From positions 1 to 42,571 of the forward strand of contig JAPLZX010000022.1 of the NCBI GenBank assembly GCA_026394815.1: 42,571 nucleotides of DNA. The letters run 5' to 3'. The stretch comes from Candidatus Zambryskiibacteriota bacterium. Lineage in GTDB: Bacteria > Patescibacteriota > Minisyncoccia > Phycocordibacterales > DATDWN01. A model generated the notes under the pieces. It was given only the letters and a program-made list of their open reading frames with translations. It did not search any database and was not told the origin of the DNA. Below are positions 1 to 37,502 of this stretch, piece by piece (the stretch's first letter is position 1; every line of letters begins with the position of its first letter). A program made the translations under genes and the position numbers.

Positions 1-2
1 GA

Positions 3-203
3 GTGATCGCCGAACACAACAGACAGAAGGGGTGTGGCAACAAGGAAGAAAGCCTGTTGAATGAAATCATCACACGAGAATTGGGGCTTTACGGATTTGT
101 TGCCCCCGATGACATCTTCTCAATGACCAGAAAGGTCACACGAGAGATAGAGAAAATCCGTAGCGGAGAGGAACGAAAAAGACCTCACAACCTCACAGTT
201 TGA
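3..203 (+). CDS. hypothetical protein, C-terminal part (the frame is open to the window edge, so it may be 5'-partial)
   Basis: The ORF lies in a GC-rich patch and its first listed codon is GTG. A 9-bp hairpin follows it directly. No motif was recognised. Confidence 0.35.
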   Translation: MIAEHNRQKGCGNKEESLLNEIITRELGLYGFVAPDDIFSMTRKVTREIEKIRSGEERKRPHNLTV

Positions 204-204
204 T

Positions 205-247
205 AAGATGGGCTGGCCGTAGCAGTACGACCAGCCCATATCTTATT
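205..247 (+). terminator. hairpin terminator after ORF 3..203
   Basis: ATGGGCTGG (208-216) pairs with CCAGCCCAT (231-239). T-rich sequence (tcttattt) follows. Confidence 0.5.
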
Positions 248-265
248 TAACTACTGTGGATAACC

Positions 266-295
266 TTGACGCAAAGGTATTAGCTGTATTATAAT
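266..295 (+). promoter_or_regulatory. sigma70-like promoter for the small ORF at 318
   Basis: TTGACG (266-271), an 18-nt spacer, then TATAAT (290-295). GGAAGGAGG lies 7 nt upstream of ATG 318. Confidence 0.5.
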
Positions 296-317
296 ATCTC
301 TGGAAGGAGGCCGTAAG

Positions 318-476
318 ATGGCCAAAAAGCCTCAGCAAAGAAAGGGGGTCTCGAAGAAACTACCAGGGAAAAACAACTCCCCGCGCTTGTGGAGAAGAGG
401 CCCAATTCGTACAATTGACTCACGCCAATTTGTTGACCGCAAGTCAGCGGCAGCAAATGATGACACTCTCGATTAG
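318..476 (+). CDS. small basic protein, 52 aa (MAKKPQQRKGVSKKLPGKNNSPRLWRRGPIRTIDSRQFVDRKSAAANDDTLD); below the ORF-track cutoff
   Basis: Hand translation. It has its own promoter, a strong SD and a downstream terminator. I prefer it to the antisense ORF 289..486, which has none of these signals. Confidence 0.45.
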   Translation: MAKKPQQRKGVSKKLPGKNNSPRLWRRGPIRTIDSRQFVDRKSAAANDDTLD

Positions 477-487
477 TCGAGAGCACT

Positions 488-517
488 GAGAGGCGACCAC
501 CGAGCGCGGTCGTCTCT
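488..517. terminator. bidirectional GC-rich hairpin between the small ORF (+) and the ATPase gene (-)
   Basis: GAGAGGCGACC (488-498) pairs with GGTCGTCTCT (508-517) as a 10-bp stem with one G-U pair. T-rich sequence follows on the + strand. Confidence 0.55.
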
Positions 518-3264
518 TATTTCTTATACTTTTTCAAAATATCTTCTTCTATTTCCACACGATTACCACCATATGTAAGATATGAAAGTTGTTTTAATGT
601 TTCAATAATAGCTGGATTACCTTTTGGTGGAATTTCAGCTTTTATATTAAATGCTTTTACAGGTTTGCCCCCAACTAATATTTTTGCGTAAAAATTATAG
701 TTGTTTATATTCATAATATCTTTTGCTGTAAAAACAGGACTGAATTGTTTTTCCAAATATTCAGCATCTTCTGCGCCAACACGAAATGTAATAATTGAAC
801 CAATATTACCAAATACCGCATCACGAATATCTTCCTGCAATTGAGCAATAAATTGATGAGCAATATTGAGCGATAGTTTATATTTTCTGGCTTCCGAAAG
901 AATGGTGGCAATTGAATTGGTCGTTATATTTTGAAATTCATCAATGTATAAATAAAAAGGAGGAAAATCTCCGGTAGAATCTGCACGAGAAAGAGCAGCC
1001 ATCAAAATCTTACCAACCAAAATAAGACCGATGAGATTTGAGTTTATATCCCCTAGACGACCCTTGGAAAGATTAATCAGTAATATTTTCTTATTATCCA
1101 TTATTTTACGAAAATCAAAAGATGATTTTTCTTGAGCGATAATCGGTCGCATAATATCGTTTGCCAAAAAAACATCAAATTTGCTTGTGATATAAGGCAC
1201 AATGTTTGCAAGAGAGGCTTCCCCACCAGCTTTTTCCGCTACCTCTGTCCAAAACTGAACAACCACAGGATTTTTACAATGAGAAAGTTTCAAATCACGA
1301 AAGCCTTTATTTGTCATAACTCTTGAAACATCTAAAAGCGTGCAACCAGTGTCTGGGTCTTCAATAACCAGCATAGTGGCATTTCTAAAATACTGTTCAA
1401 ACATAGGACCTAAAGCTTCCGGCACTTTACCGTATAATTTTTGAAAGATACTAAATAACTCATTAACCACAAATGTTTTTTGCTCTGGATAAGTTTTATC
1501 ATATTCCAACATATTGAGAGCCATTGGGCGCTCCGTATAACTTGGGTCAAAATATATAACATCCTGAAAACGATTTTGTGGAATATTGGAAAGAACATCC
1601 AAAACATCCGGGCCATGTGGGTCAATAAAACAACAACCTTTGCCAGCAGTAATATCCTGAATAATCATATTCTTCAAAAGAGTGGTTTTCCCTGTACCTG
1701 TCTGTCCGATAGTATATAAATGTCGCAATCTATCGTCATCTTGCATGTAAATTGGCGTATCAATATTGCGATAATTATTTACACCAAGAAATGTCCCCTC
1801 ATGACCCATTTCGGCTGGAGCTGGTGCAGAAATAGACTGACTTTGTTTTAATTGTGGGGTTGGAGCAAGTCCTGTGTTTTGAAAATGAATTAACGAAGTA
1901 ACCTCATGAAGATTGAGTGGTAATAATTCATCCTCGTTATAACTTCTAAAAGAATAATTTCTAAACATTTTTTGCAGAACACTTTTTTCTAATCTTTTAG
2001 CTCTAAGACCATTTGCAGACGAATCTGTGAATTGATTAAAACTTGACTCTAGCCCTTGAAGAATTCTTTCAGCATCAATACGACTTTGAGCAGAAGCTAT
2101 TAAACGAATGTTTGTGGCCACGATAGTACTCCCTATTTTTTGTTTAATTTTTTGTATGGCTTCCGTATCGATAGGTTTCTTTTCTTCACTCTCTTTTGGA
2201 ACTGATTTAAATAAAGAAAATACAGTTTTTTTCAATCCCCCACTAAAAGATTCTGGCATATCTATGGCATCTTTAGTCGGCACTCCTTTTTCAATATGGT
2301 CAATTGCATATTCATATTTTTTTTGAAAATAATCTCCTTTTGGAGCAAAGACAATCTGAATCCCAGCCCCCTCACCGTCTTTGTTTATTTTTGAAAAACT
2401 ATTTAAAATAATGTTCAAGGGGTCATGGTCGAAATTCTCATAAGTTTTAAATTGATAAATAGGATTGTTGGTTGATTCTAAATAAGAGCCCAGAGAGATT
2501 CCATCTGCATTAAAAATATTATAATCAGAAGTAACTTCTGTTAATTTGGCGTCATGAAATACTGATATTATCTGTTTTTCAAAAAGAGATTTGTGAACAT
2601 CCGGTACTGCAACATAGAAAACAAATTGATCGCTACCGTTTGCGTTTGCAATTTCTAATACTATATAATTTTTTTTATAATCTTTTGTGTCGTCTTTGGT
2701 AATGACAGAAAGCATCCCAGATAAAAATTGTTCCATACTGGAAATCAATTCTTTTAAAGGTTTTGATTTTTCTTGTGATGAGTCCGTCGAACCGTTTTCA
2801 GGTAATACGACCTCATAGAGAGTCATGCCTAATCCTCGAAATTCTTCATTTGAAATATTGACCCCTTTTGCCCCATAACCGTGTTTTATATATTGAACAA
2901 GAAAACGATGAAAATCGTCTTCCAGATGAGGGTCTTTAAAACCAGAGAGTATTGACATGGTATTTTTTATACCTTTTTTGTTCAAAATACCAAGAAGTTC
3001 TTCTATCTTTTTATCATGTCTTTCTGGAGCCAAATTAAGAACAATTGATTCTACATCCGTTTGAGCCAGTGCGTAGGTTTCGTCCAATACTTCTTTTGGT
3101 AAAACATCACGATAATGTTGAATCTCTTCTTTTACAATATCGTCAATTTTAAAATCAACTTTTTTTTCGCGAAGTTCTAATTCTCTGTTTGATATTTGTT
3201 CACGAAGAAAAGCTATTTCTTCTTCAGGATTAGTGAAATGAAGATTCTCAAGATTTTTTTCCAT
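517..3264 (-). CDS. VirD4/TraG/TraD-like (type IV secretion coupling protein / DUF87-type) P-loop ATPase with an unrecognised N-terminal half
   Basis: 915 aa. The C-terminal half carries Walker A GQTGTGKTT, IDPHG, Walker-B-like FYLYIDEFQN and ARKYKLSLNIAHQFIAQL, in the order typical of T4SS coupling ATPases. Confidence 0.75.
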   Translation of the reverse strand: MEKNLENLHFTNPEEEIAFLREQISNRELELREKKVDFKIDDIVKEEIQHYRDVLPKEVLDETYALAQTDVESIVLNLAPERHDKKIEELLGILNKKGIKNTMSILSGFKDPHLEDDFHRFLVQYIKHGYGAKGVNISNEEFRGLGMTLYEVVLPENGSTDSSQEKSKPLKELISSMEQFLSGMLSVITKDDTKDYKKNYIVLEIANANGSDQFVFYVAVPDVHKSLFEKQIISVFHDAKLTEVTSDYNIFNADGISLGSYLESTNNPIYQFKTYENFDHDPLNIILNSFSKINKDGEGAGIQIVFAPKGDYFQKKYEYAIDHIEKGVPTKDAIDMPESFSGGLKKTVFSLFKSVPKESEEKKPIDTEAIQKIKQKIGSTIVATNIRLIASAQSRIDAERILQGLESSFNQFTDSSANGLRAKRLEKSVLQKMFRNYSFRSYNEDELLPLNLHEVTSLIHFQNTGLAPTPQLKQSQSISAPAPAEMGHEGTFLGVNNYRNIDTPIYMQDDDRLRHLYTIGQTGTGKTTLLKNMIIQDITAGKGCCFIDPHGPDVLDVLSNIPQNRFQDVIYFDPSYTERPMALNMLEYDKTYPEQKTFVVNELFSIFQKLYGKVPEALGPMFEQYFRNATMLVIEDPDTGCTLLDVSRVMTNKGFRDLKLSHCKNPVVVQFWTEVAEKAGGEASLANIVPYITSKFDVFLANDIMRPIIAQEKSSFDFRKIMDNKKILLINLSKGRLGDINSNLIGLILVGKILMAALSRADSTGDFPPFYLYIDEFQNITTNSIATILSEARKYKLSLNIAHQFIAQLQEDIRDAVFGNIGSIITFRVGAEDAEYLEKQFSPVFTAKDIMNINNYNFYAKILVGGKPVKAFNIKAEIPPKGNPAIIETLKQLSYLTYGGNRVEIEEDILKKYKK

Positions 3265-4351: not shown

Positions 4352-4387
4352 TTTAAAAAGAAGTGGGGTGCCCCGAGGACACCCCAC
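4352..4387 (-). terminator. intrinsic terminator of the 155-aa ORF
   Basis: GTGGGGTG (4363-4370) pairs with CACCCCAC (4380-4387). TTCTTTTT follows on the minus strand. Confidence 0.55.
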
Positions 4388-4398
4388 ACACGAAAGAC

Positions 4399-4866
4399 TC
4401 AGGCCGCCATCGTTCTGAGCACCTCTCGCGCCACACGACCTTTGGCCCGTGATATGCGGTCAATTACCCGCACACAGGCCATCGGATCTCTTTTCCCAAA
4501 AACCGAAAAGAGGGCATCACCAACTTCAACTTTAGACAGGCCACGGAAAGCCTTCCTCTTCGTCATGGTGCCGTAGCAGATCATGTCTCCGATAACCTCC
4601 CATTTCAGGTTACCGAAATAGTGGTGGAGATTTCTGTGCCGAAGAATCTTCATCCACAGGATGTTTCCCGTGTTGCCCTTCTTGCCATTCTTGCACTTGT
4701 TCGTCATGTGGTGCTTGTTGACTCTCCTCTTCTTTCTCACCACAGAAAACGAACAGTTGGAACGAAACGGCTTGCCAGTTGGATGAGCCCACTTGGACTG
4801 ACGACGCTTCTTGCGCCGACAAATCTTCCTGCGCCATCCCAGCTTACTCTGTCCCCCATACTTCAT
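4399..4866 (-). CDS. hypothetical, very basic 155-aa protein (Arg/Lys-rich N-terminal half)
   Basis: It is the longest ORF in the GC-rich patch. GAGGG lies 6 nt upstream of the ATG and a terminator follows. No family was recognised. Alternative-frame ORFs here are expected in GC-rich DNA. Confidence 0.45.
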   Translation of the reverse strand: MKYGGQSKLGWRRKICRRKKRRQSKWAHPTGKPFRSNCSFSVVRKKRRVNKHHMTNKCKNGKKGNTGNILWMKILRHRNLHHYFGNLKWEVIGDMICYGTMTKRKAFRGLSKVEVGDALFSVFGKRDPMACVRVIDRISRAKGRVAREVLRTMAA

Positions 4867-5084
4867 CTTTGTCCCTCAGATGTGTGGTTCCAGAAGTAGC
4901 TAATGGGTTTGCAGAGGAACACCTTTCTACATTTCTGACACCTCTCTTTCTTTGTTGTAAGAACTCCATAATCATTATATCAAAATAAACAAATTTGGGT
5001 ATTTTAAATTTTTTAATTTTTGATTATTTCATTATGGTGCTATGCTTATACAGGAAATGTTCACCAAGGAAGGGGTAAAAGAAA

Positions 5085-6179
5085 ATGAGACTGCCGAGAG
5101 TAGCCATCAAGGGTTTTCAACTGGACAACTGTATTGTCCAGGGAGGAATGGGTGTTGGCGTTTCGCTTCACCCCCTCGCAGGAGCCGTGGCTAAAGAAGG
5201 CGGTCTCGGAATAGTTTCGAGTGCCGGCCTTCGTAGCGTCGTCTCTTCGCGAGACGGGAAAGATGTCGACACATACACCGCTGTACGTATCGAACTGGAG
5301 AAAGCAAAAAGTGGAAGCGGTGGTGGGACTGTCGGCATCAATGTGATGTGTGCGGTGGTTGAATACGAGGACACTATTCGTGCTGCGATTGACGCAGAGA
5401 TTGGTGCGATCGTTTCTGGTGCAGGACTTCCACTTGGACTTCCGAGCATCAAACCACCTGGACACACAGCGCTTATCCCAATTATCTCCTCGGCTCGTGC
5501 TCTGGAGATTATTGTCAGGCGCTGGGAACGAGTCCACTATCGCCCGGACGCGGTTGTGTTGGAAGGACCGCTGGCTGGAGGACATCTCGGCTTCAAACCC
5601 GAAGAGGTGGATAATCCAGCTTTCGAGCTGGAGAAACTCTTGCCTCCTGTTCTCGAAGTCGCCCACAGACACGGAGACTTTCCAGTCATAGTGGCTGGCG
5701 GAATCTACACCCACCAAGACATCGTCAGGTTCTTGGTAATGGGAGCAAGTGGTGTACAGATGGGAACACGTTTTTTGGCAACGAATGAAAGTTCAGCCAC
5801 GGACGCGTATAAACGAGCTGTGATTTCTGCAGGTATAGACGACATCACCGTCGTCACATACCCCAACAGAATTCCGGCTTCACCGTGTGGACTTCCGTTC
5901 AGAGTCCTTAAGTGTTCGCCTATGTACAAGACAGAGCGTCCGGCCAAGTGCAACAAGGGGTACGTTCTCCAGCGAGGGCCAGACGAAAAGCTCTCTGCCT
6001 GCCAGGCGATGCCGAAAGCACCGAACAACAAGTCGTTCCTCTGCATCTGTAACGGTCTTCTATCTTCGGCCGGATACGCTCCGGAAGAACCCCCTCTCTA
6101 CACCGTCGGCACGAATGCCTATCGTGTAGACAAACTCCTCTCCGTAACAGAACTCATGGGTGAGTTATGCGGAGAATGA
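5085..6179 (+). CDS. nitronate monooxygenase / NPD-family FMN oxidoreductase (FabK-like)
   Basis: Motifs GGMGVGVS..LAGAVAKEGGLGIVSSAG, VSGAGLPLG, VAGGI and GASGVQMGTRFLAT. GC about 50-53% in hand-counted lines. Confidence 0.85.
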   Translation: MRLPRVAIKGFQLDNCIVQGGMGVGVSLHPLAGAVAKEGGLGIVSSAGLRSVVSSRDGKDVDTYTAVRIELEKAKSGSGGGTVGINVMCAVVEYEDTIRAAIDAEIGAIVSGAGLPLGLPSIKPPGHTALIPIISSARALEIIVRRWERVHYRPDAVVLEGPLAGGHLGFKPEEVDNPAFELEKLLPPVLEVAHRHGDFPVIVAGGIYTHQDIVRFLVMGASGVQMGTRFLATNESSATDAYKRAVISAGIDDITVVTYPNRIPASPCGLPFRVLKCSPMYKTERPAKCNKGYVLQRGPDEKLSACQAMPKAPNNKSFLCICNGLLSSAGYAPEEPPLYTVGTNAYRVDKLLSVTELMGELCGE

Positions 6180-6185
6180 CCAAAG

Positions 6186-6240
6186 CCGTTGCTTCTGTTG
6201 TTAACACAAGACAGAGGCAACGGTTTTCCTATTCTTTTTT
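6186..6240 (+). terminator. intrinsic terminator of the NMO gene
   Basis: A 13-bp stem, CCGTTGCTTCTGT (6186-6198) with ACAGAGGCAACGG (6211-6223), is followed by a T-rich run. Confidence 0.7.
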
Positions 6241-6306
6241 TATAACAAAAACCGCCGACCAGTAATTGATCGGGGTTGGGAATCTCGTGAGATAATGCCG
6301 AGAGCA

Positions 6307-6747
6307 TTACCCCACGAGATTGAAATACTGAAGCGTCCTGTGAAGAGCATACTGGTGAGTCTTGTAGAGAACCCTACCCAACTCGTCCGCCTTTACCCAG
6401 TAGGGCGGTGACAAGGTATCGTCTCCGTCAAGAATTTGTTCCCTACGAAGAATCCCCACACAATCATCGATTGAGACGAGGAAGAATACTTGTCGCCCAA
6501 TGACTCTGAGTATTCTTGGTCTTACACCCAATCTTAATCGAAGATTCGTTTCCTCTTCCAATTCTCTGATGAGAGTTTCAGAAGCACTGCTGTCTTCCTT
6601 GTGCCCTCGATTCGTTCCTCCGGGAAACTTTGTCTGCAGAGGTTTACAAATATACCTCTGGTCCATGGATTTGCTGTCCTGAACCAGAAGATATATCTTA
6701 CCCTCTTCTCTTTTCCAAACAACGGCACCAGCGAACCAGCGATACAT
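6307..6747 (-). CDS. NUDIX hydrolase
   Basis: Nudix box GGTNRGHKEDSSASETLIRELEEETNL. Start moved to ATG 6747 (MYRWFAG), which has AGGAG 6 nt upstream. The track start at 6825 lies inside a TTGACT/TATTAT promoter. Confidence 0.75.
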   Translation of the reverse strand: MYRWFAGAVVWKREEGKIYLLVQDSKSMDQRYICKPLQTKFPGGTNRGHKEDSSASETLIRELEEETNLRLRLGVRPRILRVIGRQVFFLVSIDDCVGILRREQILDGDDTLSPPYWVKADELGRVLYKTHQYALHRTLQYFNLVG

Positions 6748-6840
6748 TTGTTGCTCCTGGCTGAAGTGGTTGTGTCTTACATTCCGAGAACTTCTCGGAT
6801 TTCTACCTATATAATACCATATCAAAATAGAAAGTCAATG

Positions 6841-6912
6841 TGACCTTACCGGGAATTGAACCCGGATTCCAGCCTTGAGAAGGCTGTGTCCTAACCGTTA
6901 GACGATAAGGCC
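6841..6912 (-). tRNA. tRNA-Glu (anticodon CUC)
   Basis: Hand-folded 72-nt cloverleaf. Acceptor GGCCTTA/TAAGGTC, D arm GTCT..GGAC, anticodon stem CAGCC/GGCTG with loop TTCTCAA, T arm CCGGG-TTCAATT-CCCGG. CCA is not encoded. Confidence 0.9.
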
Positions 6913-11880: not shown

Positions 11881-12009
11881 CTACTACTGACTTGTGCACA
11901 GGCTGTGGATAACTGAAATTTATCTTGTTTTATATACAAAAAAGCTTGCCGTTCGTGTTTTCACACTACTTAGCAAGCTTTGTTTCGAGTTGTAGATTCC
12001 TCCTGTTAC

Positions 12010-12177
12010 CTACAACCCAATGACGTGCATCACCCACAGTGAGCCCGCGGCGAGCGCTCCCCCGATGAATATTGCTGGGAGAGCATACTTTCTGGCCCAC
12101 TTCTCAGATACGACAACCAACCCCAACACCAGGATGAAGCTCCCAAAGAGCAAACAGTACACAGACAATTCTTTCAT
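12010..12177 (-). CDS. small hydrophobic two-TM peptide, 55 aa (MKELSVYCLLFGSFILVLGLVVV...)
   Basis: It lies in a GC-rich patch. AAGGAGG sits 6 nt upstream of ATG 12177, there is a perfect consensus promoter upstream, and a hairpin plus T-run lies downstream. Confidence 0.5.
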   Translation of the reverse strand: MKELSVYCLLFGSFILVLGLVVVSEKWARKYALPAIFIGGALAAGSLWVMHVIGL

Positions 12178-12223
12178 GGTGTCCTCCTTCAAGGAAATCG
12201 TTTTACTTCAATTCTCTCTTATT

Positions 12224-12252
12224 ATTATACACCTTATTAAGAATTTTGTCAA
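12224..12252 (-). promoter_or_regulatory. perfect consensus sigma70 promoter (TTGACA-17-TATAAT)
   Basis: Minus strand: TTGACA (12252-12247), a 17-nt spacer, TATAAT (12229-12224). Confidence 0.6.
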
Positions 12253-24428: not shown

Positions 24429-24433
24429 CCATG

Positions 24434-24563
24434 AATCAAAAATTTCTTTCTCGTTGTATCTCTCGTGGAGCACGGATATTTTTCTGCTGAAAAATTCCTC
24501 GAGCTCCCTCCGTCGAGCGTCGCTAGTCTCCACTCGAGACACAACTCAACGAAATTTTTGATT
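24434..24563 (+). repeat. 130-nt compound palindrome: an AT-rich 13-bp stem enclosing a GC-rich ~93-nt hairpin element
   Basis: AATCAAAAATTTC (24434-46) pairs with GAAATTTTTGATT (24551-63). Inside, GTTGT/ACAAC, TCTC/GAGA and GTGGAG/CTCCAC stems enclose two smaller hairpins. A T-rich tail follows. Confidence 0.5.
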
Positions 24564-24638
24564 TTCTATTTGTTTTTTATAAAATATCATTTTGACTTAT
24601 ATTAAATGTTTGTGTTATAACTTGGCAGGAGGTTACTC

Positions 24639-24911
24639 ATGATTTTGTGGTTGATGGTCATCACCCAGATGGTTGTTTGGGCTTGGTTTTCGCTCAAGGG
24701 CGGTAGGTTGAGTGACAAAAAGTTTCTCATTTTTACCGCTGGTATGCTCATCGGGCAATTCGGCACCGGTATCGAAACGTACCAACAGGCCGCCTGGCGA
24801 TCGTTCGTTGTCCAAGTATATTTTTTCATATTCACAGCCCTGGGTGGAATCCAGAGATTCAAGCAAATGAGAAAGGCTTCTTGGCGTATCATGAGAAATG
24901 ACGGTTGGTAA
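24639..24911 (+). CDS. small 3-TM membrane protein, 90 aa, GC-rich
   Basis: TTGACT-17-TTATAA promoter (24592-24620), GGAGG 7 nt upstream of the ATG, and three hydrophobic segments. I prefer it to the antisense ORFs. Confidence 0.55.
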   Translation: MILWLMVITQMVVWAWFSLKGGRLSDKKFLIFTAGMLIGQFGTGIETYQQAAWRSFVVQVYFFIFTALGGIQRFKQMRKASWRIMRNDGW

Positions 24912-25062
24912 CCACTTCCCGTTTACCATGGACAACTTAAAGAGTTTAGTCGTTTCTGTATACTGAAATGGCAGCACCCCCTCTCTGACAACAGTTGAGG
25001 GTGTTTTTTGTTTTAAAAAAACCAGAAAACCCTGCCGACGGGTTTTCTGTTATAATGCCCCT

Positions 25063-26994: not shown

Positions 26995-27012
26995 TAGTTT
27001 AAATACAACAAA

Positions 27013-27120
27013 ATGAATCCCGTACGAAATTTATGCAGTTTGTCTTACGGGAAATATATTAGTAAATTATAGTTAATAATAAATAAAGGTGAAAAAATAA
27101 CTTTTATTTCGTACGGGATG
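27013..27120 (+). repeat. 108-bp MITE-like element, copy 1 (14-bp TIR ATCCCGTACGAAAT)
   Basis: It is an inverted copy of 29097-29203, with about 11 mismatches and 1 indel by hand alignment. Its own ends form a perfect 14-bp inverted repeat. Its last 3 nt are the ATG of def. Confidence 0.6.
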
Positions 27121-27704
27121 AAGAAAATTTTACAAAAAGAAGCCCCAGTATTGCGAGAAATAAGCCAAAATATACCGCTTAATTCCATTCATTCGCCCAA
27201 AATTAAGAAAATTATAAAAGAAATGAAAGTGGCTTTGGCCTCTCAAGATGATGGTGTCGCTTTGGCCGCTATACAAATCGGATACCCACTTCGTATGTTT
27301 GTGGTCTCAAAGAAGGTCTTTGAGATTAGTAAAATAGCCAAAAAAGGTTCTAGTGAGACAGCCAAAGAAGGTATTGCCAAAAACGGTTCTATTGATACAG
27401 CCAAAGAAGGTCTTACTGAGACAACCAAAAAAAATTTAGATGAGACAAATTCAATAACAGATGCTATTTTTATAAACCCTGTGCTTAAAAAAATATCAAT
27501 TTATATGGAAAAGTTAGCCGAGGAAATAAAGCAATAATTCAAGCTTGGGATGAGCACGGCAAAAAATTTGAAAGAGGTGGTGTAGGTCTTTTAGCCCAAA
27601 TATTTCAACATGAAATGGATCATTTGGACGGTATTTTGTTTATAGATAAAGCAAAATATGTAGAAGAAATTCTTCCAGAAAAAAAATCTGTGCAAAAAAT
27701 ATGA
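27118..27704 (+). pseudogene. def: peptide deformylase, frameshifted and lacking the EGCLS metal-binding motif
   Basis: Motif 1 GVALAAIQIG is in frame 1 (to 27537). Motif 3 QHEMDHLDG is in the -1 frame (27492-27704). The frames meet at an A7 run (27487-27493). No EGCLS is present in any frame. The stop overlaps the fmt ATG (ATGA). Confidence 0.7.
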
Positions 27705-28560: not shown

Positions 28561-28725
28561 TTAATTCAAATATTGACCAAAACTAGACTGTGGATATAAA
28601 TTTTCCGCCACAGCTTCAGCTTTTTGCATTATATATAAAAGCCCAATAATTATCATCACACATCCAAATACAAAAGATACTAAAAATGGATTCGCCTTTT
28701 TGTTTAATTGATCAAGATTAATCAT
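28561..28725 (-). CDS. small membrane peptide, 54 aa (MINLDQLNKKANPFLVSFVFGCVMIIIGLLYIMQKAEAVAENLYPQSSFGQYLN); below the ORF-track cutoff
   Basis: Hand translation. Its ATG overlaps the hpf stop (ATGA), AGGAG lies 7 nt upstream, and it has one TM segment. Confidence 0.45.
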   Translation of the reverse strand: MINLDQLNKKANPFLVSFVFGCVMIIIGLLYIMQKAEAVAENLYPQSSFGQYLN

Positions 28726-29099
28726 TTTTTTCTCCTAAAATCAACTCTTTTTAATAAATCTTTAATTCTGGTAGCCCCTTTTCTCCACAGAGTTTTATAT
28801 TTATTTTTTCTAGAAACAATAGCTCGCTCTGATTCATCACGCACAATATCAATTGCAGTATATAAATCTATTTCTTCTGCTACTACATAAATCTGTTTAT
28901 TTCCTGGTTGAACGATATTAATTTCTGCTCTGAATATATCCCCTGTATTATGGTGTTTGGTTGTTCTACCTATTTCTACCTCACACAAAATTTCATTTTT
29001 TGTATCCAAAAATTTTTCAAGTGTGGATATTTTTTTAGAAACATATTCATCTATAGCTGGTGTAATATCAAAATTTTTTGATCTGATTTTAATTTTCAT
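28722..29099 (-). CDS. hpf: ribosome hibernation promoting factor / RaiA family
   Basis: MKIKIRSKNFDITPAIDEYVSKKISTLEKFL is the typical S30AE/HPF N-terminus. 125 aa. Confidence 0.85.
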   Translation of the reverse strand: MKIKIRSKNFDITPAIDEYVSKKISTLEKFLDTKNEILCEVEIGRTTKHHNTGDIFRAEINIVQPGNKQIYVVAEEIDLYTAIDIVRDESERAIVSRKNKYKTLWRKGATRIKDLLKRVDFRRKK

Positions 29100-29203
29100 C
29101 CCGTACGAAATAAAAGTTATTTTTTTGCTTTTATTTTCATTAACTATAACTTACTAATTTACCTCCCGTAAGACAAACTATATAAATTTCGTACGGGATT
29201 CAT
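29097..29203 (-). repeat. 107-bp MITE-like element, copy 2 (inverted relative to copy 1)
   Basis: Its reverse complement aligns end to end with 27013-27120. Its inner end supplies the hpf ATG (29099-29097). Confidence 0.6.
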
Positions 29204-29291
29204 CTCCACTTATTGTAACATCCACAAACAAAAAACTCCAAGTTTAGATAAATTATTGCATTCTTACATATTTTTGTTATCCTTTATATAT

Positions 29292-31043: not shown

Positions 31044-31209
31044 CAGTAACTAGTCTGAAATACAATTTTGCCTGTGTATATCCTACTGCGTCAACATTAT
31101 TCTGAAGTGTAAATTTTTATAATAATGCTAGAATTCCGCTAAACTGCAGCTCACTTTTGATTCCGGACCAGTTCGCTATCCTGAATTTCTCTATCAAAGA
31201 GTTCCAAAC

Positions 31210-31454
31210 CTGTCTACCAGACAGAGCACGAGGAGCCCCGCAAGGGGCTTTTCTCGTGCTCTGCGAATTCAAAACGAAGTTTTGAATAAGGGCTCGAACA
31301 AATCCATGGTCTACTGACGCATCGGCGTCTGTCGCGGATTTGCGTTTTCAATTTCAATGAACAACGGTGAATTGAAATTGAAAAAGAGATCCCTGGTCAC
31401 AGAGGCGGTTTTCTTTTACTCAAAATCAAGTTACCTACCTGCGCAGGCAGGTAA
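31210..31454. repeat. array of six near-perfect, mostly GC-rich hairpins, ORF-free
   Basis: Stems at 31210-24, 31223-62 (10 bp + 6 bp with a GCAA loop), 31267-87, 31299-342 (enclosing GACGC-atcg-GCGTC), 31346-83 (13 bp) and 31431-54 (followed by a T-run). Confidence 0.5.
31391..31404 (+). repeat. direct repeat of the tRNA-Asn 3' end (attR-like remnant 1)
   Basis: CCCTGGTCaCAGAG against tRNA CCCTGGTCGCAGAG (29351-29364), a 13/14 match in the same orientation. Confidence 0.5.
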
Positions 31455-31485
31455 TTTTTACTTTCTCTTGTTATAATATAAACAT

Positions 31486-32226: not shown

Positions 32227-32412
32227 TATCTTTCGGCCTGTATTATTCTATTCTACTGAACCACATTTTCATCCTTATCTACCACTACAGCAGTATCGTT
32301 TCATGAGGTGTATGGACGCGAAAGCCAAAACCTACAAGCCAATTAGTAGACAACGTACGGTAAATGTGGTATTTTTAATTTTGGAAGAAACCAGTTTGGA
32401 AAGGAGCCCAAC

Positions 32413-33099
32413 ATGCGGAGAATGATGTTGTTTGTCGTCGCAGCTTTATTTCTTGTGGCAGGCACTGCGTTTGCTCAGGAAAGCCCGAGGTGGAGCATCG
32501 ATTTCATGCTCGACACCGGAAGAACGTCGAGTGACTACAAAACCACTCCACGCGAGGGGTGGCAGAAGGACTTTCAGCCCCCAGGAAGGAGCATGAAGGT
32601 TTCCACGATGAATCCGACCCATTCCTCAACGACCATTCGGCTCGGTCTCAGTTTTGACATATTGAGAACCAAGTCTGGCTGGCGTCTGCGTGTGCCCATT
32701 TCCGAGCAACTCGCAGGGTGGTCCGGCAGTTACATCAATTCGTTTGGGCAGGAGGAATTGGCCAAAGCGACAGCCGATTGGTGGGACCCCGTCACAGTGA
32801 GTGATGTGGTGGTCAAGCGGTATGTACCGCGCATCGGCCTTGAGGTCGTTCGCGGCCGCTTCATGTTTGGGGTCTCCGGTCAATACTTCACAGTATCGGA
32901 GAGACAGTTCAGAGGTGTGGACTGCTCTGGATGTGTCAACACTTCGAAAGTTATCAGTTCGAAGGATACAACCGGGATCAGCCCACGCCTTGAGTTCTAC
33001 TACGGTCCGTTCGGCGGCTTCTACGAGCTGCCCGGCGACAAGATATCTCGGTTTGGCTTCATCTTCCGGGTTCGCACATCGGACCTTATCGGGATGTGA
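32413..33099 (+). CDS. secreted beta-rich protein resembling a small outer-membrane beta-barrel; GC-rich
   Basis: Signal peptide MRRMMLFVVAALFLVAGTAFA/QE, alternating hydrophobic patterns, and GGAAAGGAG before the ATG. 52% GC in the hand-counted line 32641-32700. Confidence 0.6.
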   Translation: MRRMMLFVVAALFLVAGTAFAQESPRWSIDFMLDTGRTSSDYKTTPREGWQKDFQPPGRSMKVSTMNPTHSSTTIRLGLSFDILRTKSGWRLRVPISEQLAGWSGSYINSFGQEELAKATADWWDPVTVSDVVVKRYVPRIGLEVVRGRFMFGVSGQYFTVSERQFRGVDCSGCVNTSKVISSKDTTGISPRLEFYYGPFGGFYELPGDKISRFGFIFRVRTSDLIGM

Positions 33100-33120
33100 C
33101 CGACCTTATCGGGATGTGAC
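33082..33120 (+). repeat. tandem direct duplication of GACCTTATCGGGATGTGAC spanning the stop codon
   Basis: Identical 19-mers at 33082-33100 and 33102-33120 are separated by 1 nt. Confidence 0.85.
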
Positions 33121-33125
33121 TACTT

Positions 33126-33153
33126 AACCCCGTGTGCTCGCGCACACGGGGTT
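33126..33153 (+). terminator. 11-bp GC-rich hairpin terminator
   Basis: AACCCCGTGTG pairs with CACACGGGGTT. Confidence 0.7.
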
Positions 33154-33563
33154 ACTCTATTTAATTTAGATGTTAAAATTTGTAAATATAAAAATGGTTG
33201 CTGGCCCGTTTCCACGGATGCATAGAAATTTTCTATCTGACAAGATGAGAAATTTTGAGGGGAATCATCCAACCCGCGGGACTAATCACAACACAAAATT
33301 TTCTAAAATATTGGACTTCCCCCCGTTCCCTACCCGCGGAGCAGATAATCATTTATAATATACCCATGGTCATAGACATAGAACTAACTCTTAATAGGTT
33401 TGGGTTTGGGAAAATTTCTGAAAATAAATTTCAGTTGTTTTGTTTTAGATTCTCAAAATGGAAAATCCCAAACAAATACTCCATCTCTTTTGAAATAAAC
33501 TGGAAGACAAGTGAGATTAAAGATACCTAGCCCTTTTATCCTTTTATCTTTATCCTTCGAAAA

Positions 33564-33582: not shown

Positions 33583-33697
33583 TAAAGTTTTTAGCTATAT
33601 TTCTCCACACAATTTTACCCGTCTGCAAAAGCTATGCTTTAGCATTGCGGGCAGGACGACCCTTTCGTGAGACTTGAATTTTTAGTATAATTTTTAT

Positions 33698-34300
33698 ATG
33701 AAAAAAAATTATATCATTTTAATAATTCTTGTTTTGATAGCGTTAGTGACTGGCTTAGTTATTTTTAGACCGCATTCCGGCAAAGAGAAGGTAGCCGAGC
33801 AAACTTTACCGAAAGATTATAAAAACGCAACGTATATAATTGAAGGACAATCCGTTACCCTTACTAATGGATTATCTGAAATTGAAGCAGCGCCTGGCTC
33901 AGCAACAAAAATCATTACCCGTTATTTCGGCAATGAAGTTAAGCACGACCTTAACGATGACGGCCGTGAAGATGTGGTTTTTCTTTTGACTCAGGAAACC
34001 GGCGGTAGCGGTGTCTTTTACTATATTGTCGCTGCCTTAAATACTCCGGACGGCTATATCGGTTCGCAAGCTGTTTTCTTGGGTGACCGTATTGCCCCAC
34101 AAACGACACACATGGATGAAGGAATAACGTCAAAGGGAACCAACAGACAAAATGTTATTGTTGTTAATTATGCCGTTCGTTTACCGGGGGAGCCGTTTAC
34201 TGCCAGACCTTCATTAGGTAAAAGTATGTGGCTTAAACTCGATCCGGTTACAATGCAGTTCGCCGAAGTAGCACAAAATTTTGAAGGCGAATCCAGATAA
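33698..34300 (+). CDS. hypothetical membrane-anchored/secreted protein
   Basis: 200 aa with an N-terminal TM segment. No family was recognised. Confidence 0.65.
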   Translation: MKKNYIILIILVLIALVTGLVIFRPHSGKEKVAEQTLPKDYKNATYIIEGQSVTLTNGLSEIEAAPGSATKIITRYFGNEVKHDLNDDGREDVVFLLTQETGGSGVFYYIVAALNTPDGYIGSQAVFLGDRIAPQTTHMDEGITSKGTNRQNVIVVNYAVRLPGEPFTARPSLGKSMWLKLDPVTMQFAEVAQNFEGESR

Positions 34301-34336
34301 AATTAAAACTTTTTTATTTTGTGTTATTATAAATAT

Positions 34337-34579
34337 ATGAAAAAAATAATTACAACACAATTTATAGTTTTACTTATTGGAACTGTTTTTGCTTGGTATA
34401 ATTTTTCAAGAGAACTTATTGATTGGTCTGCAAGTCGCGCCTGCACCACAGGATGCGCGACGGGTTTAGTTAATCCATTTTTTACTCCTTGTTTTTACGG
34501 AGCAATATTTTTCACTATTGCTTTTGTTTTGAGTATCTTTATTTTGAAATATAAAAATAGAGATTACCAGCAGATTTAG
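34337..34579 (+). CDS. small two-TM membrane protein with a CTTGC motif
   Basis: Start set at ATG 34337 (MKKIITTQF), because the track start at 34319 is a TTG. Confidence 0.55.
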   Translation: MKKIITTQFIVLLIGTVFAWYNFSRELIDWSASRACTTGCATGLVNPFFTPCFYGAIFFTIAFVLSIFILKYKNRDYQQI

Positions 34580-34672
34580 TGCGCGGATAAATTTGCAAAT
34601 AATTTTAGTTTATGGTTTAATACTTAACGGATCGTTCCCCCCTCCAACCCAACCTTATAGCAAAGGAGACTT

Positions 34673-34963
34673 ATGCTCAGAGGAAATCTGGGACTATCTG
34701 CCATCAGGGAAGTTGATGATATTGCTGGCAGTGCCACTCAGGAACACGAATTGTTTGTGCGAATCAGAATTTGCCAAGCAAGAGTGATCTTAGACAACGC
34801 TGAAACCAGCCCAGGTCAGCGTGTGTGTCGGGATTGCGGAGATGAAATCTCGCAGAAACGACTGATGGTCGTTCCCGGTGCAATTCGTTGCACCACCTGT
34901 GAAGGAATATGGGAGAGGACTCACCCGAAGATTCCTCCTCCTCGTCACTTACAAAGTCGGTAG
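34673..34963 (+). CDS. TraR/DksA-family C4 zinc-finger protein
   Basis: CRDCGDEISQKRLMVVPGAIRCTTCE (CxxC-17-CxxC), AAGGAG upstream of the ATG, and a GC-rich patch. Confidence 0.75.
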   Translation: MLRGNLGLSAIREVDDIAGSATQEHELFVRIRICQARVILDNAETSPGQRVCRDCGDEISQKRLMVVPGAIRCTTCEGIWERTHPKIPPPRHLQSR

Positions 34964-35022
34964 TAGTCCCCCCGCCCCATCCTTTTGAGATCTACCGGCT
35001 GGATCCCAGCCCAGCCGTCGCC

Positions 35023-35060
35023 GCCTCGTCGTCGTAACACCGTCGTCGAGGCTTTTCTCT
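35023..35060 (+). terminator. hairpin terminator after the TraR-like gene
   Basis: GCCTCGTCGTCG pairs with CGTCGTCGAGGC (12 positions, two U-U mismatches), followed by TTTT. Confidence 0.55.
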
Positions 35061-35130
35061 TGTAAAAAACAAATGTGGTAAAAATTTTTTGGTGTATAAT
35101 AATAAAAGTTATTAACTTAAGTTCATTATT

Positions 35131-36894
35131 ATGCTTAAAAAATCAATCTATTCAAACTATTTCATAAAAATAATATTTCTTTTTACACTTATTGTTTTAC
35201 CGTCTGTTCTCTTCGCAGCTTCTGCCTCCATTCAATATTTTTCTCCTAGCACCATCGTCTCTGTTGGTGGTGATGTTTTTTTCAGAATTAGCCCCGAGGG
35301 TTTCTCTGGTGCTATCACATATATAGTAAGTGACACGTTTTCAGGAACTAGTGTTTCTAGCTCAAACATAGATAGTTCCGGAACATTTATTTGGAAACCT
35401 GCAACTCAAGATATTGGCACTCATAATATTACAGTAAATCTATCGGATCAGTTTAGTAATACTGCATCCGTCTCGCAACAAATTATAGTGCCTGTAATTC
35501 CAACAGTTACAATTAGAAATGTCTTTCCTAGTTCTTCGGTTAATGTAGGACAAACTATTTTCTTTAGTACACTCGTAACTGGATTTACAAATCCAATATA
35601 TTCAATTACTGATTCAATTTATACTTCAAGTCTAACTCCAACAAACATGAATTCTTCCGGTGATTTCAGTTGGACACCAAAATCTTGGGATGTCGGAAGC
35701 CATAATATAACTATAGTTGTGACAGATAATTCCGGACGAAGTGCCACAGCTATTCAAAGTATAATCGTAGGAGTGGCTACTACAACCATAGAATTGCTTT
35801 CCCCAGGAAACACTGTCACCTCTAGACAAAATGTCACTTTCAAAGTTACACCGATAAATTTTACCAATCCCATATATACCCTAAGTGATTCCGTTTCAGG
35901 AAGTAGTATTAATAGCGGAAATTTAAATGCTCTTGGAATTTTCAATTGGACACCAACACCAAGTGATTTAGGTACTCATTTAATTACAATAAGAGTAAGT
36001 GATGCTTCTGGAAGTATTTCTACTATTTCGCAACAAATAACCGTAACTAATCCTAGAATTGATATAAAATCTGCAAGCCCTAGCACAACCATAGGTGTAG
36101 GAGTAACATTATCTTTCAATGCAACTTCAACTGGACTTATAACCCCACGTTACACAATTAATGATTCGTTTGGTGGAACTAGTATTTCTAATAGTAATAT
36201 AAATTCATCTGGAGAATTTAGTTGGACCCCAAAAAGCATTGATATTGGAGTACACCCCATAAGAATATTAGCAACGGATAATTTTGGCAGTAATGCAAGT
36301 ACCGAAATGTTAATAATAGTTAAAGCTTCATCAAGCGCAACAATTTCTTCCCCTACAAATGCAGGAGTTGTCACGGTAAATACTCCGACTACTGCGGTAA
36401 ATTATACCTTTAATAAATCTCTTTCTGTTGGATCGTCTGGTGCAGATGTCTCCGCCCTCCAAGTAATCTTGAAACAACAAGGATTTTTATCTACAGATGT
36501 AACCGGATATTATGGAAGTTTGACAGAAAAAGCAGTTAAAGATTTTCAATCTTCGCGTGGGTTAGAGGCTGTGGGTTTTGTAGGCCCAGGGACAAGAACC
36601 TCTTTAAATAATTTGCAAAATATAAATACAAATGCGGGTACAAATACTACCACTAACACTACAGCTAATTCAAAATATACATTCACTAAACCATTAACTA
36701 TTGGTTCAACTGGTACAGAAGTTTCTGAATTACAGAAAAAATTAACGAGTTTAGGTTTATATTCTGGACCTATAACTGGCACTTTCGGTCCATTAACTCA
36801 AACGGCTGTTAAAAAACTCCAATTAGGACATAATTTGGAACAGATTGGAAGTGTAGGCCCCGCAACACGAACAGCACTAAATAGCGAAATATAG
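35131..36894 (+). CDS. surface protein with five tandem Ig-like repeats and two C-terminal peptidoglycan-binding (PG_binding_1-like) domains
   Basis: Signal/TM N-terminus. About 95-aa repeats each carry SSG.F.W.P...D.G.H.I. There are two copies of GS.G..V..LQ..L...G.....TG.(F/Y)G.LT..AVK.(F/L)Q. Confidence 0.8.
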   Translation: MLKKSIYSNYFIKIIFLFTLIVLPSVLFAASASIQYFSPSTIVSVGGDVFFRISPEGFSGAITYIVSDTFSGTSVSSSNIDSSGTFIWKPATQDIGTHNITVNLSDQFSNTASVSQQIIVPVIPTVTIRNVFPSSSVNVGQTIFFSTLVTGFTNPIYSITDSIYTSSLTPTNMNSSGDFSWTPKSWDVGSHNITIVVTDNSGRSATAIQSIIVGVATTTIELLSPGNTVTSRQNVTFKVTPINFTNPIYTLSDSVSGSSINSGNLNALGIFNWTPTPSDLGTHLITIRVSDASGSISTISQQITVTNPRIDIKSASPSTTIGVGVTLSFNATSTGLITPRYTINDSFGGTSISNSNINSSGEFSWTPKSIDIGVHPIRILATDNFGSNASTEMLIIVKASSSATISSPTNAGVVTVNTPTTAVNYTFNKSLSVGSSGADVSALQVILKQQGFLSTDVTGYYGSLTEKAVKDFQSSRGLEAVGFVGPGTRTSLNNLQNINTNAGTNTTTNTTANSKYTFTKPLTIGSTGTEVSELQKKLTSLGLYSGPITGTFGPLTQTAVKKLQLGHNLEQIGSVGPATRTALNSEI

Positions 36895-37014
36895 AAAGAT
36901 AATGTTCATTTAACCTTTACAAGTCTGACTTTGTAGAGTACTATTTATATTGGAAATTATGGATACAACCGAGTTCGGGCGGTATCCCGAATAATCAGCG
37001 GATTAGAGGGCAAC

Positions 37015-37227
37015 ATGGGGTCAGAAGAATTCCGTCATGTTCCAGTCCTGGTCGCTAGAGATTTGGCGAATGCCGTCATTGCGCGAGCCCTCGCCGACGC
37101 ACTCAACCCGACCAACTCTCTCAAAGTCCGCGAAGATGCCAAGGAGTTCCTCAGGCGCGACAACACCACCTGTACGATGTATTGCGCAAAGGCAGGTATC
37201 GACCCGCGGAGCATCTGTCTCCGCTAG
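37015..37227 (+). CDS. hypothetical 70-aa protein in a GC-rich patch
   Basis: TTTACA-17-TACTAT promoter, a structured leader and a strong terminator. No motif was recognised. Confidence 0.4.
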   Translation: MGSEEFRHVPVLVARDLANAVIARALADALNPTNSLKVREDAKEFLRRDNTTCTMYCAKAGIDPRSICLR

Positions 37228-37247
37228 GCGAGCTTGCTGTTCACCGG

Positions 37248-37284
37248 CCTCCGTCCCGATTTTTGGGGCGGAGGTTGTTCTTTT
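37248..37284 (+). terminator. intrinsic terminator
   Basis: CCTCCGTCCC pairs with GGGGCGGAGG (10 bp, one G-U), followed by TTGTTCTTTT. Confidence 0.6.
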
Positions 37285-37286
37285 AA

Positions 37287-37502
37287 TTACATTTGTTCTT
37301 TAGGAACACAATCCTTGCAAGATTTTTTGTGTGTAAATACTAAATAAACAGCAGATAATCCAACTAAGATATAAATGAGTTTAGCTAACATGGAACCAAC
37401 TCCAAAAACACTGTCCACCAAATTATAACCAAAACCCACTAAAAGCCAGTTCAATCCTCCGATTACTAGAAGAGTGAAACTGACCATGTGTAATATTTTC
37501 AT
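37287..37502 (-). CDS. DUF378-family small membrane protein
   Basis: LLVIGGLNWLLVGFGYNLV is the DUF378 signature. Confidence 0.75.
   Translation of the reverse strand: MKILHMVSFTLLVIGGLNWLLVGFGYNLVDSVFGVGSMLAKLIYILVGLSAVYLVFTHKKSCKDCVPKEQM

Follow-up and report, generated by a model that had tools for sequence, protein, structure and literature searches.

GC-rich patches in an AT-rich Patescibacteria chromosome: probable acquired coding cassettes in re-used spacers and a family of three-way-junction RNAs

The window considered here is positions 1 to 42,571 (nucleotides, nt) of contig JAPLZX010000022.1 (GenBank assembly GCA_026394815.1) from a Candidatus Zambryskiibacteriota bacterium, and our subject is the set of 13 short GC-rich patches that interrupt it. 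The original prediction, made from the letters alone, described these patches as micro-cassettes lying mostly in spacers between housekeeping genes and offered two readings of them: either very small foreign modules had been inserted repeatedly, or the patches are a family of GC-rich structured RNAs and miniproteins kept by selection. Each of these readings holds for a subset of its own, insertion for the coding patches and conserved structure for the patches without an open reading frame (ORF), and neither covers them all. In our assessment, the patches are probably of two unrelated kinds, namely acquired coding mini-islands and structured RNA elements.

Gene content and related loci

Judged from its genes and their order, the window is an AT-rich, streamlined, Paceibacteria-like chromosome of the Patescibacteria (candidate phyla radiation, CPR), with an overall GC content of 36.1%. 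The backbone genes identified with Pfam comprise mraZ-mraW-ftsL-PBP-Mur ligase; lysS, greA and PBP2; mreD, mreC and mreB; a class-II aminoacyl-tRNA synthetase (aaRS); rseP, frr, holB and a second mreB; priA, fmt and HPF; and BipA and TruB. Among species-representative genomes, the nearest frr loci, at 57-82% identity, belong to Candidatus Paceibacterota, Zambryskibacteria and 'Patescibacteria group' metagenome-assembled genomes, and about 20 of these loci keep the order priA-hyp262-mreB2-holB-frr-rseP-aaRS-mreB1-mreC-mreD-PBP2-greA-lysS-mraZ. Related loci are given L numbers below. The closest relative recovered, L158, has backbone genes about 79% identical to the window at the nucleotide level, and all comparisons of spacers were made with relatives at or below this identity. 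Related loci with a GC content of 45-58% are common. Between 29.4 and 37.5 kb, BipA-anchored metagenome loci offer no syntenic counterpart, having only hyp187-hyp82-BipA-TruB in common with the window, which leaves patches 10-13 (patches are numbered by position) without positional comparison.

Composition of the patches

The GC content is 49.8% within the 13 patches and 33.7% elsewhere in the window. Every patch lies above backbone windows of the same length (z = 2.8-12.8), with at most 0.33% of such windows reaching the patch value, so that all 13 proposed patches are outliers on a computed profile and the 50-62% counted by hand inside them was about right. The codons shift in the same direction: GC at third codon positions (GC3) is 0.44-0.71 (mean 0.57) in 11 patch ORFs and 0.15-0.38 (mean 0.24) in 37 backbone genes (Mann-Whitney p = 3e-7), a difference of the kind by which genomic islands are recognized from composition. 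Because the shift is largest at the third position, amino-acid composition cannot account for the GC content of the patches. The same fact bears on a reading in which all patches are native and vertically inherited, their GC being held by selection for RNA structure or by an expression or stability need of small genes. We consider that reading unlikely, and a shift concentrated at the least constrained codon position is one of the points that count against it.

Promoter motifs are less informative. Of all sigma-70 matches in the first 20 kb, the two that score highest (12/12 and 11/12) both lie at cassettes; the total of promoter-like sites in the window is not above that of shuffled sequence, so promoter matches alone carry little weight.

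Assembly integrity

Short patches in a sequence of metagenomic origin invite the suspicion of assembly or binning artefacts, that is, chimeric joins with reads of GC-richer organisms. An exact-protein look-up in Logan assemblies recovered independent contigs from runs ERR15302165/166/182/191/197/198/205/213/214/223/224 and SRR20698650. Over 18926-24470 and 33626-39963, those compared are 99.97-100% identical to the window; the two stretches take in all AT/GC junctions of patches 4, 5, 6, 12 and 13 and part of patch 7. The junctions of 34590-35055 are identical in 11 independent contigs, and those of 36917-37277 are covered by independent contigs as well. A check for chimeras, which the original prediction had called for, thus reproduces six patches in other runs (4-6, 12 and 13 whole, 7 in part). 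Chimerism is rejected for patches 4, 5, 6, 12 and 13, and it is unlikely for the remaining ones because unrelated studies show the same architecture in relatives. With both stretches and their junctions reproduced by assemblies from at least nine other runs, and with cassettes that are whole units bounded by promoters and terminators, an artefact is a practically negligible explanation of the patches. Same-strain short-read contigs repeatedly end at 24470 (inside one of the structured RNA copies described below, copy B), 18926 and 33626, which suggests repeats or strain variation at these points.

Coding cassettes

Of the coding patches, seven are autonomous units with a single ORF, and the eighth is a 2.5-kb island beside tRNA-Glu. 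The seven units, with their ribosome-binding Shine-Dalgarno (SD) sequences where present, are as follows:

1-516, plus strand, patch 1: the GC-rich 3' part of an ORF (3-203) that is truncated at the start of the window, then an autonomous unit with a promoter at 266-295 (TTGACG-18-TATAAT, 11/12), SD GGAAGGAGG, a 52-amino-acid (aa) basic ORF at 318-476 and a hairpin terminator at ~488-516.

11941-12252, minus strand, mraZ/lysS cassette: promoter at 12224-12252 (TTGACA-17-TATAAT), SD GAAGGAGG, ORF at 12010-12177 and terminator at ~11941-11990.

22290-22575, minus strand, mreB2/holB unit: TATAAT box 5 nt before the ATG at 22549, 66-aa ORF at 22349-22549 and terminator at 22294-22314.

24593-25010, plus strand, priA/hyp262 cassette: SD GGCAGGAGG, 90-aa membrane-protein ORF at 24639-24911 (p8) and terminator at ~24975-25010.

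32347-33154, plus strand, p11 cassette: SD GGAAAGGAG, 228-aa signal-peptide ORF at 32413-33099 and terminator at 33125-33154.

34590-35055, plus strand, p12 cassette: SD AAAGGAGA, 96-aa ORF at 34673-34963 and GC-rich hairpin terminator at ~35014-35052.

36917-37277, plus strand, patch 13 cassette: 70-aa ORF at 37015-37227 and terminator at 37245-37277 with a 15-bp stem.

The predicted anatomy of promoter, SD, small ORF and hairpin terminator is largely right for 266-516, 11941-12252 (minus strand), 24593-25010, 32347-33154, 34590-35055 and 36917-37277. It does not hold at 22290-22550, where the 66-aa ORF, its TATAAT box lying 5 nt before the ATG, looks leaderless and not SD-led. Nor is the segment at 25422-25452 a spacer patch, for it is located within the priA ORF, and the supposed micro-cassette at 4352-6840 is instead the three-gene island beside tRNA-Glu.

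The two patch 1 ORFs have a GC3 of 0.51-0.54, p8 of 0.59 and p11 of 0.66. The mraZ/lysS ORF encodes a 55-aa membrane protein (60 aa if read from a TTG at 12192) with a GC3 of 0.71, and the 66-aa ORF, at 0.49, has a weak syntenic homologue in L015 (31% identity). In patch 13 an alternative 88-aa frame is open at 37037-37303, and a GC3 of 0.66 favours the 70-aa frame. The p12 ORF is a TraR/DksA C4 zinc finger of the kind carried by phages and plasmids, matching PF01258 (zf-dskA_traR) at 38.2 bits against a cut-off of 24.9 and PHROG 54 at 1e-11, with a score under the TIGR02419 cut-off; no close homologue was found, and tblastn against phages gave only weak matches to Mu-like prophage zinc fingers. 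Family searches returned no match for the patch 1 ORFs, the patch 13 ORF or the remaining small cassette ORFs.

Two details concern cassette edges. An exact 20-bp tandem duplication (CGACCTTATCGGGATGTGAC twice, 33081-33120) spans the p11 stop codon and could reflect slippage or be the scar of a junction. The hairpin at 25023-25049, upstream of priA, belongs to the conserved backbone, the priA-proximal 110 nt being kept in L009, L011 and L014.

A -10-like box 5-8 nt before the ATG, with no SD, is found not only at the 66-aa ORF (22549-22575) but also at the class-II aaRS gene (19565-19600) and holB (22266-22290), and all three genes appear from these signals to be leaderless. The holB start is probably at ~22268 and not at 22349, the listed ORF being over-extended, because it contains the terminator at 22294-22314 and its alignment with relatives begins only near residue 20.

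The island beside tRNA-Glu

Patch 2 differs in scale from the other coding patches and consists of the following:

4352-6840, patch 2: 2.5-kb island abutting tRNA-Glu (6840-6912, minus strand).

4399-4866, minus strand: 155-aa basic protein, with a terminator at 4363-4387.

5085-6179, plus strand: NMO/FabK-like oxidoreductase (Pfam, NCBIfam).

6307-6825, minus strand: NUDIX protein (Pfam, NCBIfam).

The island ORFs have a GC3 of 0.47-0.64. Labelled homologues of the NMO at 65-82% identity come from Paceibacterota, Minisyncoccia or Kaiserbacteria, with Nitrospirota following at ~60-62%. Its GC3 is nearly native in L159 (0.39) and stands at 0.52 in the window and 0.57 in L158, against backbones of 0.2-0.3. 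The island sits at the same place in L158 in rearranged form: the NUDIX gene has changed sides, tRNA-Glu is inverted and there is an additional cupredoxin gene. Between the two genomes the NMO is 82%, the 155-aa ORF 63% and the NUDIX protein 48% identical in amino acids.

For a tRNA-linked island one would look for an integrase and, at the far boundary, a direct repeat of the tRNA 3' end, and the island ORFs contain no integrase domain and the window no tRNA-Glu fragment elsewhere. L158 does hold a 31-nt 5' half of tRNA-Glu, identical to the tRNA-Glu of the window. At 3260-3420 of L158 this half is fused to a diverged core of the three-way-junction RNA described below, with an intact, different tRNA-Glu 150 nt further on. 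The arrangement hints at a past integration at tRNA-Glu.

Re-used spacers and moving cargo

Three of the spacers could be followed as slots through relatives that conserve the gene order:

priA/hyp262 slot: 635 bp in the window; 39-51 bp in L015, L019 and L021; 0.7-1.1 kb in L010-L012; 2.1-3.2 kb in L009, L014 and L025.

mreB2/holB slot: 245 bp in the window; 32 bp to 2.9 kb in relatives.

aaRS/mreB1 slot: 88 bp in the window; 0.5-2.2 kb in L009, L011, L014 and L016.

Each of these slots is either empty (32-88 bp) or filled with different GC-rich cargo (up to 3.2 kb), which is presence/absence or replacement polymorphism at the level of the site (32 bp-3.2 kb, among relatives at or below ~79% nucleotide identity). 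In the long versions the ORFs have a GC content of 54-60% against 37-43% for their own backbones, and their products are SPFH/Band-7 proteins, proteins with a signal peptide and small paralogues in tandem. The tandem paralogues in the priA/hyp262 slots of L009 (3316-3830) and L014 (3985-4850) are 60-90 aa long with 24-40% mutual identity. The same slots of L009 and L014 also hold a family of signal-peptide proteins with an AQTTGF motif, which recurs in other slots; p11 was considered as a member of this family and is unrelated to it (hhalign probability 0.6%).

Cargo also moves between slots. A segment of the priA slot of L011 (5944-6777) is 56% identical to one in the holB slot of L009 (7916-8755). 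At mraZ/lysS, the region upstream of mraZ, with its MraZ boxes and DnaA-box-like motif, is 86% identical to L158 up to window position 11942, and the alignment resumes at lysS; between these points the window has its 55-aa membrane-protein unit and L158 an ORF-poor segment of ~220 nt with 60% GC, whose promoter has a -35 element that aligns with the -35 of the window cassette.

Homologues of the cargo proteins tell a similar story. The only homologue of p11 among 5.8 billion proteins (62% identity) is at a different locus, inside a 46-55%-GC patch of a 37.5%-GC contig with a Patescibacteria-like gene set. Differences between the two at codon positions 1, 2 and 3 are 0.27, 0.20 and 0.54, and their concentration at the third position identifies p11 as a real coding gene. 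The p8 family has 42 homologous clusters of similar length (~80-100 aa). In the 52%-GC contig L161 its member stands among co-directional genes next to uvrC and looks native; in the 45%-GC contig L163 it is a GC-rich singleton with a GC3 of 0.82. Cargo homologues were found only in contigs that are Patescibacteria-like or of unknown taxon, at other positions, and they are GC-rich again wherever the host is AT-rich. A phage origin was also considered and rejected: PHROGs match only the TraR-like ORF, and tblastn against phages is weak for p12 and gives nothing for p11. Taken together, the homologues point to a gene pool circulating within Patescibacteria, GC-richer lineages included, as the putative source of the cargo. 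This agrees with a survey in which most inferred donors in transfers into Patescibacteria were other Patescibacteria (PMC12455944).

These observations bear in two ways on the reading of all patches as native. That the NMO and p8 families occur in Patescibacteria-like contigs speaks for it. Yet the same family is native in some genomes (NMO with a GC3 of 0.39 in L159; p8 in L161) and an outlier in others, slots are empty or carry unrelated cargo in relatives of the same gene order, and homologous cargo is found in different slots. The coding patches thus fit acquisition, because their codon composition is foreign, the same spacers are empty or differently filled in relatives and homologous cargo occurs elsewhere.

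A family of three-way-junction RNAs

Two of the ORF-free patches are copies of one element:

20878-20978, plus strand, RNA copy A: 101 nt in the frr/rseP spacer, convergent with frr.

24449-24549, minus strand, RNA copy B: 21 nt after the stop codon of the 262-aa gene and convergent with it, at the left edge of the priA/hyp262 slot.

The original prediction saw no shared element in these patches (given there as 20882-20974 and 24453-24545), and both sequence and structure are in fact shared. Copies A and B align without gaps over 101 nt at ~59% identity and fold into the same three-way junction. Their ends are invariant (UUGAG... ...CGAGA), and they share a tandem G-A/G-A internal loop and a conserved G-U pair; of 32 predicted pairs, 14 are altered on both sides and still paired. 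A type I toxin-antitoxin pair, in which a small membrane toxin is overlapped by an antisense RNA, was considered for the small hydrophobic ORFs at 12010-12177 and 24639-24911 (p8); copy B adjoins p8 and does not overlap its ORF. The flanks often extend the RNA helix, in a different manner in copies A and B.

In the window and ~1.9 Mb of related loci, a covariance model seeded from these two copies and then rebuilt from 14 gave 26 matches (E < 0.01), about 24 of them beyond copies A and B. Copies recur in the same slots, namely frr/rseP in L015, L020, L022 and L025 and priA/hyp262 in L014 and L010, and further ones follow greA, mreB2 or the aaRS gene. The family spans genomes whose frr proteins are only 54-79% identical to that of the window. 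Its apical core is conserved (GACU..GAGCGCGACGGCGCGAG..CGAGC-AAA-hairpin with an AGCA loop-UAUGCGUGC), while the basal stems vary freely. In the alignment of 14 copies, pairing holds in 96% of cells and both partners have changed in 24 of 27 pairs, values that none of 500 shuffles reaches; slid partners are paired at 34-52%. The two strands differ as well: G-U pairs outnumber A-C mismatches by 18 to 2, the fold of the model strand is the more stable one for 13 of 14 copies, and reverse strands score 10-12 bits against 98-100. Covariation and strand asymmetry together mark a structured RNA family.

In most cases 7-25 nt separate the RNA from the stop codon of an adjacent gene, with which about two thirds of the copies are convergent and the others co-directional. 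The RNA does not stand upstream of a consistent gene and so is not a typical cis-regulatory riboswitch; our guess is that it might work as an independent small RNA or act at transcript 3' ends of the genes beside it. A search with Rfam 15 (4,227 models), at gathering and permissive thresholds, of the window, the elements and seven related loci returned only tRNAs; in the window only two tRNAs pass, and the best matches on the elements have E = 1.8-7. A strict core pattern has no match in 2.9 million viral contigs. On the basis of the Rfam result and of a non-exhaustive look at the literature that turned up no description, the family appears to be undescribed so far.

For these two patches the label 'acquired' does not stand. 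The prediction had named conservation across relatives as the mark of ancestral patches, and the family recurs in the same two spacers of relatives, diverged as they are, a point that also favours the view of the patches as native.

The RNA copies bear on a further reading, in which the cassettes form one integron- or MITE-like mobile system (MITE, miniature inverted-repeat transposable element) whose hairpins serve as recombination sites, analogues of attC, that capture single-gene cargo. Copy B lies at the edge of the priA/hyp262 cargo slot in the window, L014 and L010; a diverged RNA core stands beside the NMO island of L158, fused to the tRNA-Glu 5' half; and same-strain contigs end inside copy B. 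A general tie between RNA copies and GC-rich cargo was looked for and rejected, since most copies lie between native genes with no such cargo nearby, and a role as cassette-recombination site is accordingly unsupported. The anatomy is likewise wrong for attC: the tip is conserved and the base variable, the reverse of attC, and no RYYYAAC/GTTRRRY (R'/R'') boxes can be read, so the attC reading of the hairpins was rejected. No integrase was found, the cassettes are dispersed, each with its own promoter, and the G-U strand asymmetry points to a function at the RNA level. A repeat search for termini common to the cassettes gave only chance-level AT-rich matches. The original statement that no shared termini define a single mobile family therefore stands for the cassettes and fails for the two hairpin elements. 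We regard a single mobile system of this kind as highly improbable.

Other structured elements

The remaining ORF-free patches and the palindrome within priA are the following:

19599-19735, minus strand, rseP/aaRS unit: long-range helix GGGUGGGAAGGA...UCCUUCCCUCCC, then an intrinsic terminator at 19603-19624.

31140-31460, strand unassigned, hairpin chain: five near-perfect hairpins between divergent arsR-like and FkbM-methyltransferase genes.

25422-25454, plus strand, priA palindrome: in-frame GC-rich insert of 33 nt encoding PARPPEEGAGG in a variable linker of priA.

The rseP/aaRS element (fold z = -3.7) is a unit of promoter, helix and terminator, downstream of which lies the promoter of the aaRS gene, conserved across relatives with its -10 box 6-8 nt before the start codon. 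In relatives this slot holds either units of promoter, structure and terminator or a spacer of 15-70 nt. The window element (19599-19716) aligns poorly with the same-slot units of L019, L020 and L025, nhmmer gave no matches, and no Rfam model matches the unit. The hairpin chain ends in a bidirectional terminator-like hairpin at 31431-31454 and folds with z = -6.7 and -5.9; no convincing relatives were found, only a weak similarity to L015. The segment at 25422-25454 is absent from the five closest priA genes (L009, L011, L012, L014 and L015).

A working model

Using the comparisons above, we propose the following scheme for the two kinds of patch:

(i) The coding cargo would consist mostly of single small genes, carried as autonomous units of promoter, ORF and terminator that keep the codon composition of GC-richer donors.

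(ii) Cargo would occupy a limited number of intergenic slots in which insertion breaks no operon, and these slots would be re-used with different cargo in relatives.

(iii) The donor pool is probably formed by other Patescibacteria with a GC content of 45-58%.

(iv) Entry may occur by DNA uptake, and integration by recombination in the conserved flanks, which would replace cargo, or by illegitimate insertion.

(v) The tRNA-Glu island likely arose by site-specific integration and later decayed.

(vi) The ORF-free patches would be conspicuous only since base-paired RNA is GC-rich in an AT-rich genome. Transcription of the RNA would proceed on its own strand, in most cases converging on the gene whose stop codon adjoins.

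The composition shift, the variability of the slots, the presence of cargo at different loci and the covariation and strand asymmetry of the RNA are seen directly in the alignments and counts. A number of results weigh against the scheme. No integrase, transposase, target-site duplication or shared termini were found in or beside any cassette, so the mechanism of insertion is an inference. No cassette has a base-exact empty site among relatives at or below ~79% nucleotide identity. The products p11, p12, p1b, p3 and p13a are near-orphans, and homologue searches identified no actual donor. On the RNA side, no promoter stands at a fixed distance upstream of the copies, and pairing in the covariation alignment is inflated because the alignment was fitted to the model, although the slid and shuffled controls lie far below the observed values.

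The most serious difficulty is the age of patch 2. Third-position differences between the window and L158 are 0.48 in the island and 0.39-0.44 in the backbone; with divergence so like that of the backbone, the island predates the split of the two lineages. Its GC3 is nonetheless still 0.52-0.57 in both genomes. Either amelioration from a very GC-rich donor has been slow or incomplete, or some force maintains the GC, and a force of this kind would favour the view that the patches are native and selected, of which an island shared with L158 and GC-rich in both is the main support. Repeated foreign insertion, as originally proposed, accordingly holds for the coding patches in general and meets its limit here: since patch 2 is shared with L158 and its closest homologues are Patescibacteria proteins, the cargo is not all recent, nor all foreign to the phylum. 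Two unrelated kinds of patch, acquired mini-islands and structured RNAs, remain our preferred explanation.

Beyond this, two more far-reaching proposals can be put forward jointly, as a tentative possibility that we do not hold to be likely: that the RNAs form an undescribed functional class specific to Paceibacteria-like Patescibacteria, and that the single-gene units stem from an as yet undescribed process in which ultra-small episymbionts exchange cassettes of small membrane or secreted proteins at fixed slots without a dedicated recombinase. If true, the RNA class would number some 10 or more diverged copies in each genome and would have its own biochemical role, for example as a protein-binding small RNA or a ribozyme.

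Relation to known systems

The coding patches resemble flexible islands and integration hot spots in their atypical composition, their position between core genes that keep their order and the different cargo of the same site in relatives. The cargo is alike too, being mostly of unassigned function or else made up of secreted and membrane proteins, and patch 2 shares with tRNA-linked islands its position against a tRNA gene. There are differences. Horizontally acquired islands are commonly described as AT-richer than their host, whereas the cargo here is GC-richer. No integrase, direct repeats or mobility genes were found, and about eight slots lie within 40 kb. Genomic islands of Patescibacteria average ~10 kb (PMC12455944), whereas the patches are single-gene units of 0.3-0.9 kb.

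GC-rich intergenic regions in AT-rich genomes are known to mark structured RNAs (GC-IGR/DIMPL, Breaker laboratory; PMC6429828, PMC8632094, PMC8723152). The ORF-free patches resemble the motifs found in this way as long GC-rich intergenic regions with well-supported structure, and the three-way-junction family is the kind of motif that those pipelines recover. It differs from them in having several diverged copies per genome region and no Rfam match.

With integron cassettes the patches share small, often single-ORF modules of unassigned function and imperfect palindromes that fold as hairpins. The patches, however, are dispersed and form no array, each has its own promoter and terminator, and neither attC boxes nor an integrase (IntI) was found among the annotated ORFs. 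Repetitive extragenic palindromic (REP) sequences and REPINs, Rickettsia palindromic elements and MITEs of the Correia or RUP type are, like the RNA copies, intergenic hairpins near gene ends in either orientation, and the in-frame priA palindrome recalls the Rickettsia elements in that both lie within coding genes. Unlike near-identical products of transposition, the two window copies A and B are only ~59% identical and differ by compensatory changes, with no terminal repeats or target duplication seen.

Other features of the window

Directly adjoining patch 1, a gene at 517-3264 encodes a 915-aa TraG/VirD4-like coupling protein with native AT-rich codons; the window holds no further conjugation genes. 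An inverted repeat (26988-27122 / 29095-29228; 109-135 nt, 77-93% complementary) brackets the hyp139-fmt-HPF block, its arms being the upstream and 5' regions of the divergent 139-aa ORF (27118, plus strand) and HPF (28722-29099, minus strand); it could be a shared leader or promoter, or an invertible segment. The DnaA-box-like motif TGTGGATAA occurs twice, at 255-263 and 11904-11912, against 0.4 copies expected, and the second copy, which adjoins three MraZ-box-like repeats (TCCCACTT) upstream of mraZ, is kept in L158.

A conserved non-coding element absent from the original list lies at 33220-33345, within the 540 nt that separate the p11 terminator from the gene after it. Over 55 nt this element has 82% identity to a region of L015 that adjoins HPF (~2260-2450). 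Boxes of the form CC(A/T)ACCCGCGG recur in both, with two in the window element and at least three in the region of L015.

Conclusions

Patescibacteria hold a large share of bacterial diversity on minimal genomes, and the route by which they gain genes is of interest. The patches described here show gene flux at a finer grain than island-detection tools report, in the form of sub-kilobase expression units in re-used gaps. Most of the cargo encodes membrane, secreted or orphan proteins that could plausibly take part in host interaction. Alongside them stands a structured RNA family with strong comparative support, in a phylum for which few non-coding RNAs have been described.

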